A DNA stretch of 62,672 nt, filler included, from Globobulimina sp. (taxonomy: Eukaryota), in the NCBI GenBank assembly GCA_003354225.1. It is 41 parts of 41 records of this genome, joined end to end, with 100 filler letters (N's around TTAATTAATTAA, not from the genome) between each part and the next. Parts side by side here need not be neighbours in the genome. Positions count along the whole stretch, not along the records: positions 1 to 1,433 come from PIVH01016770.1; 40 more parts are not named here. One strand, 5' to 3'. A program made the translations under genes and the position numbers. The notes beneath the pieces were generated by a model. The model had not been told where the DNA came from, did not search any database, and saw only the letters and a list, made by a program, of their open reading frames with translations. Shown piece by piece: positions 1-62,672 of this stretch (positions are counted from its first letter, which is position 1; every line of letters starts with the position of its first letter).

Positions 1-1394
1 ACTCAGACCTCCGTCCTGGTTTTACAAGTGATTCAAATTCATCTAGCGATTCCTTGGAACATGCGAAATACTAAAACAAACACACACTATACATATGCAT
101 GTTATGATAGATAATACACATACCATACTGTCTGTATCCATCTTCATAAGTTCCCAGTCCGATCTCTCGAAGAAGTAATCAAGATATTCGTAGTACGCCT
201 TCAACATGGTAAGTTTGGCCATACCTAATATCCACACGCCGACCATTGTTGGTGTATTTACTTGGTAACTTTTTTTAACCAAATCGACTTCAAAATGATC
301 TGAGTCGATTTCTTCCAAATCGACAAACAAATTGCTTCTCACCTTTCGTTCTGCTTCAAATAATTCACAGAACGCAGTTGAAGTAAAGTTCTTCTTCCTT
401 TCCAATGTCTTACGTATAATATAAAGTCATATATTACTGTAAATATTAGCACGAAATCAAACAAACTTATCATAAGCCGAATTGCCTGCCAACTTCATCA
501 TCATGGCTTCCGTTTTCTTCGTTTCATCTATCAAGGCCTCAGCTCTCTTACTGGATATCATGTCGACAAATGATTCATATATACGTTTAGGTTTGAACTG
601 AACCACTTCATACACCTTTGTCACCTGAAGAAAATTTGCATATAATGGAAAATGTAAATCAACGCAAATATGCATACTTTAATTCCTTGCTTAAGATACC
701 AACTAACAAGAGGGGAAATAAGAACAATGTTTTTAGCCTGAAGCACACTGACCAAACTGCGGTGACCTTTGGTCATAATACCATTTTCCTCTGCATGTTC
801 TAATGATTCAGCAGACAAATCACGTCGATCCAATGTCATGTTTACAAAGAATGGACACATCTCAGAGAATTTTGTCTTCAATGACTGTGGAACCTAAAAT
901 AATGACAAAAAATTATACATCATCATCATGCCGTACATTGAACTCTTGCCTCTATATCAACACGAAGTAATCCAAACATTCGCCCATGTTCCACATGGTT
1001 AAGTAATTCTTGTTGACTTATTCCGCTCACATTGGACAAGGGCATACTAAACATATCATCCAAAAACGATCTAATGTCAGTCTGCTGTTTGCTGAGCATG
1101 TCCCATTGACATTCAAACATTATTTCTTCTTGCATTCCGATGTCACTGTAAAAATCGGTGGCTTTCTGATCCAGATCTTTTCTGTAGTCAACTTTAGACT
1201 GTTCTCCATTCTGAAACGCGGACATGATTGCAGACTTCCCAGCTCTGCAACCATCATGGTAATGCCATTTGCACCCATGAAAGTTGAAAACCTAATAAGA
1301 AACCACAGTTTATTTATATACTACCTTATCAATGCAAGACAAGTTTGGTTTACCCTTCTTTCTTTCATAAGCAATCCGTCCGGTCGGAATCCGA
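1..1394 (-). mobile_element. Polinton/Maverick(adintovirus)-type protein-primed DNA polymerase B, partial and multi-exon (exons 1394-1354, 1291-950, 893-678, 624-471, 413-124, 70-1)
   Basis: Spliced product reads GFRPDG..VFNFHGCKWH (Vsr-like insert), FGLLRVDIEVPQSLKTKFSEMCPFF, KLAGNSAYGKTLE (motif B), PTMVGVWILGMAKLTMLKAYY, MDTDSMYFA (motif C); introns of 53-62 nt restore the frame. Confidence 0.88.
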
Positions 1395-1433
1395 CTGTAA
1401 AGGTAGATTTATAATTTTTGCGGTTTCAATTCG

Positions 1434-3066: not shown

Positions 3067-4498
3067 TAACATGGTATATATAAAAAATACAGATTTCGGC
3101 TTCGTTAAATCGGTGGGTTGCATCGATGCAATTTCGCTCATCATCGACATAGTCGAACAGAACTCAAGTAATGGCCATTGCACACATGGCATTCTATTAG
3201 ATTTTGATTCGTGTTTTGACACATTTAATCATGAAAACGTCCTATTTGAACTAAAAAACGACTTTAATTTCACAGGCAATATATATGATTATTATTTAGC
3301 AGCTCTCAGTAACCGATGGATTCGAGTCGTTGCCAACGGCTATAAAACCGATTGGGAGCAAGAAAAAATAGGATTAGGGCAAGGATGGTCCCCATCGAGC
3401 GTCCTATGCTTATTGGGAGAACAACTGATGGATATAATCAATGCCCTTCGTCTCAGACTAACACTCCTTACGTTCGCCGACGACAACAACCTTTTAACAA
3501 ATGGAGAAATAACTGATTTAAAGATATTGACAGAAAATATTAATTACGCATTGCGAATCATTACGTATATTATTCGTGAAAAGCAACTTTTAATGTCCGT
3601 ACCCAAACAACAGTACATTGTATGGAATAAATTGAAAAAAATCCCTACAAATTACAATCATACAGAGAAATATTTAGATATCAATATGATGGCAGATCTG
3701 TCTAACAAATTTGAACCGGTTACACGCGAATATGTCGCAGTTAAATATTTAGGAGCTTTGCTTGATGTCCACCTCACGTTTGAGATATGGATGAAGCGAA
3801 TCTATCATAAATCAAAGAACTCAGTCTTAAAAATTATGTCAAATTTCGGAAACTCTGTCGTAATCAAAGCTTTCTGGATCCAACAATTGTTCAAATCCCT
3901 CATTATACCAAAAATGTATGGAATTGAATTATGGGGGTCCTCTACGCTGCAAATCCGATCAAAAATTAAAGCGCTGTATAATGACATGATTAGGTTTAGT
4001 AATGGCGACAGTGATAATTCATCGCCGCTTCACATCCTTGAAATGCAAATTAAATGGCATAACTTTGAAGATTATATTGCTTATCGCCAAGCAAATTTAT
4101 GGTCGAAGTTTATCCGATCACCAAATACCAATGTCCTCTCAACATATATTGAAGAGAAGTATTGGCCGGATTGGATTAAGCAACGTACAGACGATAAAAC
4201 AAATTATAGTATCAAAACAAAAAGATCAACTGAAGAAAATGAGGTAAAATGCGAAGGAATCTCAATCACCGACATTGAAATCATTGGATCAATAAAACGA
4301 AACAATTTAGAAGGCACGGCATTGGATTTTATTGGCAATACAATCAAAGACGAATCATATAAATCAATCAAAATAAAAAACACGAAACCAAAGAACTATC
4401 CCATGAAACGAGGCCTATTTAATACAATATTTAATTCGGCGGTGTCTCTTCAATCAACAGACTATAAATTTATGAAAAATATTGAATTTTGCGAGATT
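3067..4498 (+). mobile_element. Non-LTR (LINE-like) retrotransposon ORF2 reverse transcriptase, partial and divergent
   Basis: LLDFDSCFDTFNH, GLGQGWSPSS, FADD, KYLGALLD motifs in a frame open across the contig. Confidence 0.85.
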
Positions 4499-22981: not shown

Positions 22982-23342
22982 AGTATCGTCAATTACACAA
23001 AATAATGAGTCTACTAACTGTCTGATATGCGAATTTCCCATAAATAAAGCATTTGTTTTTACCATATATGGCGATTTGAATAATTTTAAGTTTGAAACAA
23101 TGTAGTTCAATTTCACGAATATAATGCAATAAAATAGATTTGTTGAACTGCTGTAAAAAATATGTAAAATTGGTTTTTTTCAATGATATTTCTGTCACAG
23201 TCGCACTATGATGGTTGTGGTTGAATCTTATCATATTTGCATTCAATTGAATCTTATCATATTTATAAAATAAAGATCCTAATCCCACACACAATATAAA
23301 CCCACAAATTATTATTTTGATTGGTTTGCTTTGTGATAACAT
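22982..23342 (-). CDS. Type II membrane SGNH/PC-esterase-like protein, N-terminal part, frameshifted near 23120
   Basis: N-terminal TM helix in one frame; LFMGNSHIRQL (GxS block) in the overlapping frame. Confidence 0.45.
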
Positions 23343-23565
23343 CGATTAAGTGGTTACAGTGGATATGTACTTAATTTTTCAAAAACTTTTTGAACAGCTT
23401 GATCCAGTTCGAACTTTGAAAAAAAACACATTTAAAAAAACCAAACCGTTTCGAAAATAGTAATACAGTGTTAATGTATAAATCATTATAATACTTGAGT
23501 TGTGTGTGGAGGATTTTCTTTGTTACTCTAAACAACTACACACTTAAACCAGCCTTGCCTTGTGA

Positions 23566-24412
23566 ATGTCTGAAGAGCTGAAAGAAAATAAAGAAGCACG
23601 TAAAAAACGAAAAGAAGAGCGTCGTAGAAAACGTGAATCATTTCAAAATAGATTAGCAGCGGTCAACAATGGCATCACAGATGAACGTAACCCAATCATC
23701 ATAGAAATTGTGCGTGACCATTTGAAGAAAGACATCGATGTATTCCAAGCCCGTTGGCAGAGCGGAGCTCCTTTATCTAATCAAGTATTCCTAAATACGC
23801 CTTTGTTCTGGTACAAAAAGCACAAATGGTCGCATAAAGACGTCAAGGAATTCTTTAAAATCACCAATACCTACAAAGAAAACTTAGACTCTGAATTGGC
23901 GATTATTTGGGGCATTGATGAAAGTGCCAAAAAAAAGAAAAAGGAAAAGGTTAGGTATAACTCGCAAAATCGCATAAATTATATATAAATATATCATATT
24001 ATATACATAGAGGAAGAGATTAAAAGAGAAACATTTACGAAAAGAATCATTTGCCTCCTTATTAACTTTACGACATTCTTCATTGCGTTTAATGCAAGAA
24101 AGATCGATGCAATTTGTGCAGAAAAACGACCCCAAAGCAGACCGAGCCAGCGTGAAAATATGGAATTTATTAACCCGCCAACGGGCAGAGCAGGAACGCG
24201 AATATTTGAGTCACAACCAATTCAACATCAGTTTGGTGGACAACAATATCTCTGTGGATCCTGATTTGAGTGTCGATTTATTCTACGAATTGACTCGAAC
24301 TTGGGAGATAATCGAGAAACATCGCGAGGACAAAAAGAACAACCCTCAAAAATATGCCGTTTCCAAGAAAGAGCAATACAAAAAGGCGCGCGGCGGCGTG
24401 ATGAGCATAAAA
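23566..24412 (+). CDS. Hypothetical basic protein with NLS-like Lys/Arg tracts; 61-nt intron 23950-24010; 3' partial
   Basis: GTTAGG...CATAG intron joins ORF 23566 to ORF 24083 in frame. Confidence 0.65.
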
Positions 24413-25842: not shown

Positions 25843-26790
25843 AATGATTTGATTTACAAAACCCGAACTTAGCGTTTTTTTGATAGTGTGCAAGGATATG
25901 ATTGACATCGATCTCACATATTTTACCCTATTGACATTGGATTNNNNNNNNNNNNNNNNNNNNNNNNNNNNNNNNNNNNNNNNNNNNTTAATTAATTAAN
26001 NNNNNNNNNNNNNNNNNNNNNNNNNNNNNNNNNNNNNNNNNNNTTATTAATTATATTCAAATCAATCCATGACGTAAAGATGAATTGATCACTGTCTCTG
26101 AATGACTAGATGTAGAGAAATATATTTGCATACAAACCCCTTTAGAGATCATATACACTCCATCATAGGTTCCAAGCACTCGAACTCAAGGCGAATTCGA
26201 CCGGATAAATTCCAAAGGTCTAATGCAACATACAGACAAACCAACACACGTAAAAACATTGCCCCGATCACCAGTTTGCATCATATTTGGTGTGATCATC
26301 GAATCATTCTTGTTTCTGAATGTTACAAATCAAATAACAAATTATTACACAAGTCACAGAAGTCAACACAAGTAATACCTGCATGCTTTGAATACAGATT
26401 CTAAAGAATCTAAAATCTCATTAAAAACATATGGTTTGCAGTTCGTGCTGTAAATACTGGCTCATCTTTTTTCCACCATTCTACCTTCTCCGTCATTCTC
26501 GTCAACATACTCCCTCTCATAAGTTTGTCCTGCTCACTGACGTCGATATCATTCTTCTTTTTGGTTCTAATTTCCTTATCTAATTGGAGAGCACCTTCAA
26601 TTATCTTTGTTTTTTTGTTGATTTTCAATTTTCAACTTAGTAGTAGTAGTGAAAAAAAAAGTGAACAAAATAATAGCAATGGATTCTATGACCAACTTTG
26701 GGTTTATGGTACGTATGATATGTTGCATACAATTGATGTTACATTCAATCAAATTATCAATACATGTATATATAGCAAGAAAATGCAACA

Positions 26791-27474
26791 ATGCATCATT
26801 TTAGTGACACTGTCTTTGTATTAGATCAACAAACAATTTTTGTATCCGATTCGGATGAAGAACCAGAGGCAGAGAGCAAGAATTCAATGGATGATGGAAA
26901 TGAATCAAACGATAATGATGAATTAATTAAATTAGAAAGTGAATTAGAAAAAGCCAAACATGAATTACATGACATTGTTGATTCTCATAACGACCAAATT
27001 GATGATTTCCAATCAATGTTAGAAAACGTACAAACGCAGTCTGAATCAATTGGTGTCATAAAAGAGAAACGAAAACAACGAAGTTCTATCAAACAAATCG
27101 AAATAAACTATGAAAACGAATTGCTACAATCCCAACAAATCAAAAAGGATTCAGATAGATATAAATTAGACATTAAACTCAAAGATCAACAAATCACGCA
27201 ATTAACCCAACAAAATGAGGCACTAAAAATAAAATTATCAAAAATTGAAAACAATCATGAAATGGAGCTGGAAAAATTGAACAAAGAGTACAACCAACAA
27301 ATCGAAAGTGAAATAAATAAACGAACTGCGCAAATTTCTCAATTGAAACAGCAGAAAAATGCAGAAATAGATATATTAAACAAACAAAAAATAAATTCAC
27401 AACAGAATTTGAATGAAAATGAAAACGATAAATTAATAAATTCATTAAAATCCGAAATAAAAAAATTAGAAAAG
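26791..27474 (+). CDS. Coiled-coil protein exon, partial
   Basis: E/K/Q-rich heptad sequence open to the contig end. Confidence 0.6.
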
Positions 27475-39822: not shown

Positions 39823-40988
39823 TTACTAATTGGAGATTTTATAGCTTTCTGGAGGTTATCTATGCGATCTTGCAACTGTCGGAGTGCGTATATTGTATTT
39901 ATTTTGTACAAATTTAGGCGTTTTGGTGATTTAAATCGATAATTCACATTATTTGCAGTAAAAATACTATGTTTAATATGCGAAGTTGATTGATTTGATT
40001 TGTGCATAGTAAAAATGGTAAAAAGTATACAATGATCAGAAATGGAATACATTGAATCATCATTAGCCACACAGTTAATAATATAATTTTGATGATGCAA
40101 TATTAATTTATCAGATGCTAAATGCAGATCTAATATATTTCCTTTACAATGCGTAGGAATTCTATTATTATTTATAACAGAAATACGTTTCTCATCTATG
40201 AGGCGATCTAACCATGCAAACTCCAGTCGATCTGTGGCGTTATATTTGTTAAAATCAATACGCGAAAATATTTCATTATGTATATTAAAATCGCCACTAA
40301 TGATATATGATTTTATTTGTTGATTTGTCGGTGTCAATGTATGTTGTATCCATTTTTTTTGTTTATAATGCTGCAAAATATAATCCATAATATATTTTAA
40401 TATTTTTATATCAGAAACACCTGTTTTATTGCTCGGGGATCTGTAGTATGATGCAAATAATATAGTTTGTGTGGTATAAGAATTTGATTGTGGATGGATT
40501 GCAATCCATGTCGAGTAATGTCCATTTGCTTTGGTTAACAAATCAATATCAATAAAATTACCAATAATTTGTTGTTGTTGAGTCGTATCTATCTGAATAA
40601 TGTCAACATATTCTTCAAAGCCGTATTTAATGTATATCACATTTTTTAGGTACGGATCGTACATTGGAATACCATTTTTAGTATGAAAATATCCATCAAT
40701 TTCTGGAGGGATCAAAGGTGCAACATAACGTACAGAAACCTCTTGTAATGCAATGATAACAGGTTCCAATTCATTGATGATATCTTGTAACGAATCTAAT
40801 TTAAGTGTATTATATCCACCTTTTCCATTATTGATCAATAAACCATTAACATTTAAAGAAAACACCGATAAAGAAGTGTCATAATAATCTCTATTGATAT
40901 GTCGTAAAATATCGCAACTGTTAATAATATCTGGATGAACATTGTTATATTCTCTCTTTCTGTGATTAATCATCATCGTCGTTGTCAT
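39823..40988 (-). mobile_element. LINE ORF2 N-terminal APE-type endonuclease (EEP domain), 3' partial
   Basis: SLNVNGL, IALQE, SYYRSP, GDFNIH, PTH...ILDL, SDH motifs in the correct order. Confidence 0.85.
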
Positions 40989-41352
40989 CGTTGTTCATCA
41001 ATATTCATGGTATATTCATCCAAAATATAAATATAAAATAACATATAATTCAAAAGCATTGAAATCTGATAAATTAATAAGGAATAAATAGGTATAAAAC
41101 AAAAATAAAAATAAATATTATATATGATTTGGTTGCAAATAAATATGATAGAAATGATTTGGTTGAAAATAAAAATACAAAGTTTATGAACCAATTCAAA
41201 TGCTGAATAATCAAAAACAATTTTAAAATTGGCAGGGAGTCGAATGAGAGTANNNNNNNNNNNNNNNNNNNNNNNNNNNNNNNNNNNNNNNNNNNNTTAA
41301 TTAATTAANNNNNNNNNNNNNNNNNNNNNNNNNNNNNNNNNNNNNNNNNNNN

Positions 41353-42710: not shown

Positions 42711-43351
42711 GTCTCCAATGTCTACACTTGTCTTTTAGATTGGCGATCCTAAATATGATTTTTACGAGAGAATTTCGTCTAANNNNNNNNNNNNNNNNNN
42801 NNNNNNNNNNNNNNNNNNNNNNNNNNTTAATTAATTAANNNNNNNNNNNNNNNNNNNNNNNNNNNNNNNNNNNNNNNNNNNNTCATTGAAAAGTATACAA
42901 ATAAAAGCAGCACATAAATGATATGGAGATCGTAGTTGGATATATAATGAATATATTTTAATGAATAAAGAGTTAAATCAATTAAATCAAACACAATTTA
43001 AAATGTCATTAAATATCACAAAAGATTCTGATGGTGATAAAGAAGATACGTTATGTATTGACAGATTATAATCTTAATTGCTGTTCTGATTTGTTTCCCA
43101 TTTGATTTTTTTATTGTGTTTATTTTTTTTTAATTTTTAATTTTTGCTGGTAAGTTGAATTATATTTTTCTGTTGAATTGACGACTTTGCATAAATGTTT
43201 CGAAAAAAAAGATATGTTTTTAGTGATCGGATCGGATCGGATCTGATCGGATTTCGACTTTTGTAGGTGATCGATCACTATGTGATAGGGTTAATATGTA
43301 TAATATCTATAATATGGATATTAAAAATAGTTAAAATAGTTGTTTGAAACA

Positions 43352-44245
43352 TTAACTACAACAACAGAAACACAGATATACGTTTCGTTTTGATTTATCT
43401 CTTCTATGCATCCTTTCAATTAAACTTCTATTTCTTTTCAATGCCGCATCGCCAATATATAAAACTACCCCATCCACAATGCCATTGGCTATGTTATGCG
43501 ATCCAAACCAATAATATACGCATTCTGTAATTTTATCCTCAAATTTTAATCCATTCCAATGTTGCAATACACCAAATACCCGTTTATCATAAAAATACAC
43601 CAAACAAATATGTGATAACCATATTACCACTGTACTCAGTACAATAATGATTATATAAACAATAAAATAATTTCCACTCAACAGAAAATATCTACATATA
43701 TAGATATAAATATATGCAATTTGAAGTTACACAAAATACAAATACACATACGTTATAATAAAATAGCAAGCAATAACAACTATAATTGTAATAATGAGCA
43801 AAATCCATATTTCCTTCGTCATTAAATATCTGCAATATGCCATTCGTTCCTGTTTTTCTTCAATTTTATCGTCTTCATAGTTTTCTAAGTGTGCCAATGT
43901 AGCATCATATGTATCATGTAAATCCGTAAACGTTCGTCCGGTTGAATCCAAATGAACACTCGTAAACGGCGTGAAATCACTTATAGTATAATTTAACTCG
44001 GCATCTTCAATGTTTTCATTAAATCCCTCGCTGCCCATATCATTATGTAATTCTTTCACAATTACAGTTGCAAATGAATTGTTGTGTTGCAGTGCAACAT
44101 CATTGGTTGGCGTATTGTTTGAAATATGATTATATGTGACTGGGGTATTTTTACTACTATGTCTTCCGTCTGATGTTCTATTTTTTAGATTTATAGAAAG
44201 TGGAGTCGATACGTCCCGGTGGTTGTTTCTCAACATGACCTGCAT
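43352..44245 (-). CDS. Hypothetical membrane protein; 60-nt intron 43692-43751
   Basis: GTATGT...TGTAG intron joins ORF 43727-44245 to ORF 43352-43681 in frame; 2-3 TM helices. Confidence 0.6.
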
Positions 44246-44412
44246 TGCAGACCTTGTATTTTCTAGTCACAAGGGGGAAAAAAAACGTTCTTGAAGTTTT
44301 TGGGTAGAATTTNNNNNNNNNNNNNNNNNNNNNNNNNNNNNNNNNNNNNNNNNNNNTTAATTAATTAANNNNNNNNNNNNNNNNNNNNNNNNNNNNNNNN
44401 NNNNNNNNNNNN

Positions 44413-59712: not shown

Positions 59713-61142
59713 TTGTGGTTGAAACGGTATTTCCATTTATTGCTATGACTCTCGCATATATTCAAAAGCTTATTGAGGTGGGATATTTTGTTGGCAGTGA
59801 GGATGATGTCGTCTGCGTACAGTGTGCAGGCAATGGGTTCATTGGGGTCAGGGGAAGCTGCGCCCAGTCCGGACTGTTGTAGTTCTTCAATTAAATCATT
59901 TAGAAATGCCGCATATAACACAGGCGAAAGGACGGAGCCCTGTAGGACGCCATTGTGGAGGAGGAATTTATTTGTGATGAATGGTAGGTCTCGTATGGCT
60001 GATTGGGAGTTGTCATAGATGGCTTTCAATGTTTTACAAAGGTTAAGTGGTATATTGAACTGTCTGTGTAATTTATAAAGGAGGCCTTTTCTCCACACAG
60101 TGTCGAACGCTTTACGGATATCCAACAGCGCAGAATAGAGCGGGACATTTCTCATTTTGGCAGTTTCTGCAATGAGGTTGATAGCGCCTATTTGCTCTGG
60201 CACACCGCGCTTTGACCTATTGCCACCTTGCAGGATGTGTAGATTTCTGCGGAACTTGTGGGCTATGCTCATTTCCCACAGGATCAGTCGTTCGTATGTT
60301 TTAAATATTATCGGCAAGAGGGTTATGGGTCTGTACTGGTTGGGGGTGTCGCCTGTTTTAGTCTTTAATATTGGTATTATGGACCCCAACCGCCAATAGT
60401 ATGGTATATAATATGTGGCATTCCATGTATTGAATAGGATGCACAGTAAGTTATTTATTTGGTATCCATTTGTTTTTAGGTGAATCGCTTTTATCCCATC
60501 ATAGCCCGGGGCACTATTTTGGTTGGCATAGGATACGGACATTTCAATGGATCGATATTTTATCTTTTTATGTTTATTCGAAGCGGGAGGGTCTTCGCTG
60601 TGTGCTTTCTCCTCCTCTTCTTCGGTTGATGTGCGTTCAGGCAGTAATCCCGGTGTTTGGTTTTGTATATCCTGTATGACATCGTTATCACTGTCCTGGT
60701 CACTCTCATGGTGTTCTATGTTGTATAGCTCATTAATTAACGGCTGGGTCGGCGGTATATAGTTGGGATCATAGTGGGGAGTTATTATGTCGTTCTCTCC
60801 GGAGTCATAATCCACTTGCTGTGCATCAACGTTTTCAAGTGGCGGTGGTATATTCAGGACAGCACTTTCCTGTGAGGCTGGTTTATGAGGGATGAACAAA
60901 AGGCCATTACGGCAATGTTCATGCAGTTTATCATTGAAAGTATTTATGTCGTTTAATTGCGGATTATTGGTTGGGTCATCAATTGGTCCATTTATTTCGC
61001 AGAAAAATTGGGAGAGCGCGGTATTTTTATCCATTATGGTATCTTTATATTTAAGGTGAGGTTCATCCAATATGAACTCTTTGTTTTTATTATGCATTTT
61101 GAAGGATTTCAGTTTATGAGAATGATCCAAGTTATTGAATCT
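59713..61142 (-). mobile_element. Non-LTR (LINE) retrotransposon reverse transcriptase, partial
   Basis: SAPGYDGI, YRPITLL, LLDIRKAFDTVWR, GVLQGSVLSP, LYADD; frame open across the contig. Confidence 0.93.
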
Positions 61143-61294
61143 NNNNNNNNNNNNNNNNNNNNNNNNNNNNNNNNNNNNNNNNNNNNTTAATTAATTAANN
61201 NNNNNNNNNNNNNNNNNNNNNNNNNNNNNNNNNNNNNNNNNNACAATATTTATGTGGCATAAAATAATAATATTTACGTAATGAAAATAAACAT

Positions 61295-62672
61295 TTATCT
61301 TGTGACGAATCCCATTCTCCGTTTAATTTCCTTTGAATATAATGCTCTTTCTCGTTGTGAACCATTTAAAATGTCTGAATTTTCCTCAAATCTACGCAAT
61401 AAAAATGGCCATACATCTTGAAAAGAACCATACGGCATCAATTTCAATGCATTATACCCAGTATAGCCCAACGAATATGTTAAATTATCCACCATACCAT
61501 TTAATTGTGCGGTATATACAAATGGGTCATCTCTTTCTATCCCCAATCTCTTCATGATCTCGGTCGTATTCTGCAATGATTGGCGATTATGTGTACACAC
61601 TGCAATCCCTATATTGCCATAATATTTCACCATCTCTCCCATCACATATTCTACTGCTAAGTCGAAACTTTCATCTGTATCTTCCTATGTAACCACACAC
61701 ACAAACACAGTCGACATGACATGATCAAGATGTCACTCAAAAAAAAAACTTAGCTCACAATGCCTAGCTCAGTAAGAAAAACATGACAAACAAAACAAAA
61801 TACCTTTCTTCTTTGAATAGGGTTACGTCGATTTTCCTTTTTAGCCAAAGCACTTTCATGCTCCAAATACGCACCGCGCACCAACTTAACACCACATTGA
61901 TATCCATTTTGCTTTGCATGCTCGATGTCAAACTCAATCCAATCACGTGCTTGTTTTAAATAACATTGATACGTATTATACAAATAAATCCTATCCCCGC
62001 CACGCGGATTAATAATTTGCATCAATCTGCGCGACAAATAATTCATTCCATTTTGCCGATTATATTGTTCAGCGTCTAACCACACTCCGATGCCTCGCTC
62101 CTTTGCATATGAACAGATGTCGGATAATGTGGCTATTGTCACATCTAATTCTGCCAATTGTTGCTCTGTCATATATGGTGTGGGATCTCTATCGACTCCG
62201 CAATCTTTGCTGCTTAATATGACAGTTAACTCTTCCAATAATGTCGGCGATGCGACAGAAGTCATTTTAATAGACATAAATGTCACCGATTTGCCCAATG
62301 ATTCATAGGATACATCAACTAATTGTTTTTTCGATGCCGTATTCTTGGCAAATACCTCTCGTGAATCCCCTTCTTCTGTGCTATTGTCAATGATTAAACG
62401 CAAGTTGTTATCCGAGTATTTCTTGGATAATGCCATGCATTCCTCGATGCTCTCACCGCCTGTAAACAATGGAAAGTATTGCTTGCGAACTATATACGTC
62501 AACGGTAAAGATATTATATTGCGCATTATGTCTAATATGGCGGATATCGCCGTCATTCCTGGGATATTGTAGGCATTGATAAAATTGCTTTGTTCATCTC
62601 TGGGGATCAATATTTTCATCATGATGCGGGTCAAGGGTTTGATAGATAACATGGAAAACATTAAATTGTATT
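61295..62672 (-). CDS. PRODH: Proline dehydrogenase; 119-nt intron 61685-61803; 5' partial
   Basis: FTGGES, SIKMT, LDAEQ, NTYQCYLK, GVKLVRGAY, THN, AQLNGM, PYG...LLRR..EN; splicing joins the two ORFs in frame. Confidence 0.92.

Follow-up and report, generated by a model that had tools for sequence, protein, structure and literature searches.

We examined a 62,672-base stretch of DNA from Globobulimina sp. (assembly GCA_003354225.1; hereafter the window), in whose first contig (contig 1, positions 1..1433; PIVH01016770.1) the minus strand of 1..1408 codes for part of a family-B DNA polymerase. Within motif B of this polymerase lies a stretch of 57 nucleotides (nt), 470..414 on the minus strand, that begins with AT and ends with AC and is probably a functional intron removed by the major spliceosome (hereafter intron 4). 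The motif (KxxxNSxYG) is present as KLAGNSAYG, a form that is obtained only with the AT-AC stretch excised. The minus-strand sequence around the stretch is ...TCG GCT TAT G/ATAAGTTT...TTATAC/GT AAG ACA TTG GAA..., with slashes at the proposed borders. The stretch is in frame with both flanking exons and holds two in-frame TGA stops, and its excision joins G to GT, which completes a GGT glycine codon and restores the peptide NSAYGKTLE. The AT-AC ends and the restored peptide were reported by a sequence-only reading of the contig, and our scans add that the excision is the unique best one.

Homology and splice signals at the AT-AC stretch

The read-through translation of the gene (P0001) gave 720 matches at E<=1e-3 in a phmmer search of 1.84 billion representative proteins, and the full-span matches aligned 168-169 query residues with 149-151 target residues, so that the query bears an insertion of 18-19 residues exactly at 470..414. 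Two homolog profiles, both leaving out the close relative P0003, were used to score the possible excisions: (i) 82 sequences covering motif B to motif C and (ii) 52 longer sequences. For each presumed intron, all in-frame, stop-free excisions within +/-45 nt were scored. With the 82-homolog profile, the AT-AC cut (exon end at 471, exon start at 413) was the unique top of 828 excisions at 167.6 bits, the runner-up reaching 163.1 bits and the best GT-AG cut (54 nt) 157.4 bits; with the 52-homolog profile, the same three values were 380.2, 373.4, and 366.9 bits. The AT-AC cut is therefore ahead of the best GT-AG cut by 10.2 and 13.3 bits, respectively. AT..AC ends occur in 10 of the 828 excisions and GT/GC..AG ends in 14, and the product of the AT and AC dinucleotide frequencies in contig 1, which gives roughly the chance of meeting AT..AC at borders defined by homology, is 0.005. 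The control introns 2 (GC-AG), 3, and 5 (both GT-AG) were placed among the top scores, so that known splice pairs, where present, are picked up by the scan. Two kinds of neighboring cut were tried and rejected: an AT-AC cut that uses an upstream AC at 426 scored 152.6 and 363.4 bits in the two profiles, and 57-nt cuts shifted by 1-5 nt, which give YDK, have unrecognised ends and score 4.5-6.8 bits lower.

Among the 82 homologs, the motif-B residues are conserved as Asn in 81, Ser in 67, Tyr in 72, and Gly in 81, and one homolog reads exactly NSAYGKTLE. A single homolog, P0117 (NSAYDKTIT), has Asp instead of the motif-B Gly and bears no insertion; the copy may be inactive, or its gene model may have been made to fit around a similar non-canonical intron.

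The consensus of the major-class 5' splice site is MAG/GTRAGT (AG/GTAAGT), while U12-type introns have the 5' site ATATCCTT (ATATCC) and a branch site, TCCTTAAC, near the 3' end. In intron 4, the 5' site ATG/ATAAGT, which is strongly complementary to U1 and U6, agrees with the former, general consensus at -3, -1, and +2 to +6. The U12-type signals are absent: the 5' site is ATAAGTTT, ATATCC does not occur, and neither does any CC dinucleotide, which leaves no TCCTTAAC-like branch site. With neither a U12-type 5' site nor a U12-type branch site, intron 4 looks U2-type, in agreement with the sequence-only reading, which had judged the donor U2-like and not U12. Moreover, U2-type branch-like sites (CTAAT and TTTAC) lie within the intron, and its 3' end is T-rich with T at -3 (TAC), a position at which the other four introns have T or C (TAG/CAG). 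At 57 nt, intron 4 is about as long as introns 2, 3, and 5 (53-56 nt), and its G+C fraction of 0.21 lies below that of the other introns (0.28) and of the exons (0.40).

AAG at +3..+5 is found only in the GC-AG intron 2 and the AT-AC intron 4, which have the best 5' site matches of the gene. A strong 5' site has been described as compensation in GC-AG introns (PMC1557818), a pattern that both non-canonical introns of contig 1 fit, although GC-AG introns change only +2, without a matching change at the 3' end, unlike intron 4.

We propose that the major (U2-type) spliceosome would remove 470..414 from the RNA, with an A(+1)...C(last) pair where the two end bases of an intron normally make a G...G non-Watson-Crick contact. 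Splicing would then join G to GT as the Gly codon, and a polymerase with an intact motif B would result. In yeast and human substrates, a first-base G-to-A change is rescued by a last-base G-to-C change, "although less efficiently", and the natural AT-AC introns of SCN4A and SCN5A are removed by the major spliceosome (PMC1557818).

Variant copies of the polymerase gene

Contig 1 is present in one public run only (X1, share 0.77), as Logan contigs assembled independently from that run, and X1 is possibly the assembly's own data; runs X2 and X3 gave no contig that aligned with it. A 913-nt Logan contig (record 1, depth 7) covers 1-692, and among the differences listed for it none falls at 414/415 or 469/470, which bears out the two terminal bases as first read. 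A diverged Logan contig of 215 nt (record 2, 312-510) carries 22 substitutions and 19 gap letters, with indels throughout 417-448 and, among the differences listed, none at 414-417 or 449-479. Of the 28 exonic differences listed across all X1 contigs, 19 affect the third base of a codon (binomial P=2e-4), and the 12 indels listed are all in introns 4 and 5. The third-position differences and the intron-only indels suggest a multi-copy family under selection. Over positions 1-1372, run X1 contains a minimum of two or three divergent versions of the polymerase gene.

The relative P0003 is a JGI open reading frame of 202 amino acids from a contig of 7,227 nt, called straight through introns and 62% identical to the contig 1 product; it was the only close relative in the protein collections searched, and a search for longer homologous proteins gave none. 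At the motif-B site, P0003 reads Y-D-K (...AAY-D-K...) at the 5' border and R-KTLE at the 3' border. Since Asp is encoded by GAY, base +1 of the P0003 intron is A; since Arg is encoded by CGN or AGR, the final base of that intron can be C or A but not G, and either Arg codon leaves GN to complete the Gly codon. For the ends read from contig 1, the second copy thus agrees in the first base and only narrows the last one. Where contig 1 has GT-AG borders, the P0003 residues are the expected ones: Val (GTN) follows MDTDSM, and Gln (CAR) precedes VTKVYE. Exons C and D are identical between the two copies at 40 of 51 and 58 of 96 residues, whereas the intron interior is identical at 3 of 15 and is 3 residues shorter in P0003. 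Thus, both lineages seem to have retained the odd borders and open exons during the drift of the intron body.

Searches of metagenome, viral, and genome contigs confirmed no DNA of P0003 or of close relatives; the degenerate pattern KLAGNxAYDK occurred at two metagenome loci, both unrelated on reading, and at none in the viral and genome contigs. Residues 139-155 of P0003 form an additional 17-residue block between VGVWILG and LAKL that would fit a phase-1 GT...AG intron missing in contig 1. This difference between the two copies indicates that intron presence varies within the polymerase family.

Competing explanations

Several considerations weigh against a functional AT-AC intron. U2-type AT-AC introns number 24 among 610,067 introns in five model species, with none in C. 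elegans or Arabidopsis (PMC1557818); this figure bears out the earlier remark that they are very rare, and it sets a very low prior for intron 4. No run on record as RNA contains contig 1, and no spliced junction was seen. Pfam matched no family to the fragment, to its single exons, or to the read-through. The unchanged 414 and 470 of the diverged Logan contig are deduced from the differences listed, and the P0003 borders are deduced from protein, which allows C or A as the last intron base and T or C as the second. Finally, the host is probably a foraminiferan, a placement based on another contig of the window and not on contig 1.

One competitor is a canonical intron, GT-AG being by far the commonest type (604,036 of the 610,067 introns; PMC1557818). 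A 54-nt intron from a GTTTGA donor (from 462) to a CGTAAG acceptor (to 409) would yield a polymerase that reads NSAYDKFTLE, with one residue more. This is the best in-frame, stop-free GT-AG option, the loose donors elsewhere in the gene (GTAGTA, GTATGC) make GTTTGA conceivable on sequence alone, and Asp for the motif-B Gly does occur in one of the 82 homologs, as YDK in P0117. All of these points count in its favor, but the cut falls below the AT-AC cut in both profiles, sacrifices a nearly invariant Gly, and inserts a residue into motif B. Moreover, its acceptor has A at -3 (AAG), where the AT-AC cut and all four other introns have T or C, and the P0003 read-through stretch contains no Val codon, so that the same phase-0 GT donor is missing from the second copy. 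We consider this option quite improbable, and its rejection by the sequence-only reading holds. A second concern, likewise unlikely, is that the copies are decaying or inactive relics in which both terminal G's of an ancestral GT-AG intron are gone and the intron, removed rarely or never, leaves no functional polymerase. The gene resembles part of a multi-copy mobile element, a kind whose copies are mostly dead, and contig 1 covers only a 1.4-kb fragment of it. Against decay, however, every exon on contig 1 is open, and the variant copies differ mainly at third codon positions, with their listed indels confined to introns. The two changes are exactly the known mutually compensating pair (PMC1557818), and P0003 combines open exons and the same non-G borders with a diverged interior at 62% identity, which argues that selection acted after the A...C state arose; decay would require the pair to persist through 38% protein divergence without exon damage.

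The other explanations fare worse. Most known AT-AC introns are U12-type (353 against 24 of the U2-type; PMC1557818), and the first three bases, ATA, are compatible with both classes. A minor-spliceosome intron with degenerate signals is nevertheless very unlikely here, as the 5' site is ATAAGT and not ATATCC, and the absence of CC leaves no TCCTTAAC-like branch site. Furthermore, one survey found no minor-spliceosome small nuclear RNA (snRNA) genes in Rhizaria (PMC11347168), and an Rfam scan of the 62-kb window gave 0 matches and no snRNA. Translation of all 57 nt into 19 additional residues, with TGA sense or read through, would fit a length that is a multiple of three, stops that are both TGA, and an open equivalent stretch in P0003. 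This, too, is extremely improbable: the interior is poorly conserved between the copies and differs in length, the G+C fraction drops, the indels of the copies concentrate in 470..414, and in all 82 homologs YG leads to the next conserved block without an insertion; such an insertion would also disrupt the catalytic motif and replace its Gly. An assembly or consensus error at 470 and 414 might be suspected in a short, low-coverage contig of a fragmented assembly, but we give it hardly any credence, since (i) the depth-7 Logan contig shows the same letters, albeit from a run that is perhaps the assembly's own data, (ii) the diverged contig has no listed change at those ends, and (iii) P0003, from another source, likewise begins its intron with A and ends it with a base other than G. 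Taken with the comparative evidence, the AT-AC ends, the U2-like 5' site, and the rejection of the GT-AG option all stand from the sequence-only interpretation. Its further suggestion, that intron 4 may gate polymerase output, is plausible, its one basis being the lower efficiency reported for A...C splicing (PMC1557818).

Gene structure, setting, and place among known introns

The gene on contig 1 reads as a partial family-B DNA polymerase gene of the protein-primed type, with four short introns besides intron 4, all on the minus strand. A tentative exon 0 (1325..1408) was placed by frame analysis and is open from a stop codon at 1409-1411 to a GT donor; its junction with exon 1 is not fixed by homology. 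The equally tentative intron 1 (1292..1324, 33 nt, GTAGTA...TATTAG) is GT-AG, and this cut scores 380.2 bits against 382-383 for several longer non-canonical cuts. Exon 1 (950..1291), supported by frame analysis, homolog consensus, and the excision scan, holds the FHGCKWHYHDGC block at about 1282-1247, which matches the EFxGCxxHGHxC motif of the homologs, with Tyr replacing the middle Gly. Intron 2 (894..949, 56 nt, GAG/GCAAGA...TTTTAG/G) is best read as GC-AG and belongs to the top tie group at 380.2 bits; an alternative donor, GT(TCAA), 6 nt downstream, scores 372.5 bits, 7.7 below, and the GC-AG excision yields VDIEVPQSL, the spacing of which agrees with the homolog consensus VDIxVPxxL. Exon 2 (678..893; frame analysis and excision scan) is followed by the GT-AG intron 3 (625..677, 53 nt, AAA/GTATGC...CTTCAG/G), which scores 380.2 bits, with two shifted cuts with unrecognised ends 2.3 higher, at 382.5. 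Exon 3 (471..624; frame analysis and excision scans) ends with KLAGNSAY and the G that opens the motif-B Gly codon; intron 4 (414..470, 57 nt, ATG/ATAAGT...TTATAC/GTA) is in phase 1 and was placed by frame, excision scans, and conservation. In exon 4 (124..413; alignment and excision scan), GT completes the Gly codon, and the exon runs from KTLERKK... to motif C, MDTDSM, at its end, where MDTDS is invariant in the homolog alignment A1. Intron 5 (71..123, 53 nt, ATG/GTATGT...TTTTAG/T) is GT-AG, its GT-AG cut being the top score, and exon 5 (1..70; frame analysis and excision scan) runs off the contig end. The GC-AG intron 2 and the AT-AC intron 4 make two non-canonical introns in 1.4 kb.

Relatives of this polymerase are found in scattered eukaryotes, for example Haliotis rufescens (abalone; XP_046346617.2) and a Lithocolla globosa transcript. 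The Pfam cut-off for PF03175 (DNA_pol_B_2, the protein-primed "organellar and viral" type) was reached by four of the 11 relatives scanned (P0011, P0013, P0032, and P0041), and a small profile of alignment A1 matched no PDB sequence. The relatives additionally carry C2H2 or NADAR domains; one, P0029, is called a Vsr-type endonuclease by its source, and Pfam detects no such domain in it. Motif B (after splicing) and motif C are common to the contig 1 gene and to the PF03175 polymerases of Polinton/Maverick-like and related eukaryotic elements, whereas the relatives of the contig 1 polymerase differ from the PF03175 type by the additional FxGCxxHGHxC block, to which one source gives the name Vsr-like. 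The integrase, capsid, and protease genes and the terminal inverted repeats expected of a Polinton/Maverick are not visible in the 1.4-kb contig, which ends at 1433 nt.

The window consists of 41 separate contigs, each of 1430-1433 nt, ordered by length and joined by spacers of N44-TTAATTAATTAA-N44. Apparent synteny across the spacers is therefore artificial, and the only context of the AT-AC finding is contig 1; blastn and tblastx found no second copy of the polymerase gene among the other window contigs. These contigs encode eukaryotic genes, including a Ras-family GTPase, a class-3 G-protein-coupled receptor, SAM domains, ECM29, and non-LTR (long terminal repeat) reverse transcriptases. An acyl-CoA dehydrogenase on the contig at 52063-53492 has as its best named relatives two foraminifera, Bolivina argentea (81% identity) and Elphidium margaritaceum (75%), which makes a foraminiferan origin of the assembly probable. 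The contigs at 3067-4498, 39823-41252, and 59713-61142 have long open frames with matches to RVT_1 and to endonuclease/exonuclease/phosphatase domains, and are non-LTR retrotransposon fragments. In four further contigs, 22982-24412 (+), 42883-44312 (-), 26044-27474 (+), and 61243-62672 (-), the gaps between open reading frames resemble short, AT-rich GT...AG introns; they are ∼57-110 nt long (e.g., GTATGT...TGTAG) and, judged by eye, have the style of the canonical contig 1 introns.

On its sequence, intron 4 is probably a further example of a known rare class, the U2-type AT-AC introns. With the members of this class ("type II"; e.g., those of human SCN4A/SCN5A and TAF2), it shares the AT...AC ends and a 5' site that is major-class except at +1; their ends are kept in orthologs (PMC1557818), as those of intron 4 seemingly are in the diverged copy P0003. 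Unlike the SCN4A, SCN5A, and TAF2 cases, intron 4 belongs to a protist (probably a foraminiferan) and to a mobile-element-type polymerase, and is very short. U12-type AT-AC introns have the same terminal dinucleotides and are likewise rare, but their ATATCC 5' site and TCCTTAAC-like branch site are missing from intron 4, and the lineage may lack the minor spliceosome (PMC11347168). Our literature search, in which subscription journals were thinly covered, turned up no published nuclear AT-AC intron from Foraminifera or from a Polinton-type polymerase; a match for AT-AC introns in foraminifera or Rhizaria, PMC6823432, concerns mitochondrial introns, and a Physarum preprint does not name Rhizaria.

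Two bolder possibilities, to which we attach a low probability, are that the AT-AC state is old and selectively maintained in a foraminiferan polymerase lineage, as an inefficient intron that throttles the active polymerase, or that the foraminiferan major spliceosome tolerates non-GT-AG ends far more often than that of model organisms, the latter being raised because a GC-AG intron lies in the same 1.4-kb fragment. A conserved rhizarian case would widen the known range of U2-type AT-AC introns and speak against the view that they are a relic confined to vertebrates and fungi. These introns are among the rarest classes and are a naturally occurring parallel to the classic first-base/last-base suppression experiments. 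Gene predictors limited to GT-AG or GC-AG introns would yield shortened members of this polymerase family or a mis-spliced catalytic motif, and intron 4 offers a simple test case of whether such an intron limits the expression of a mobile-element enzyme.

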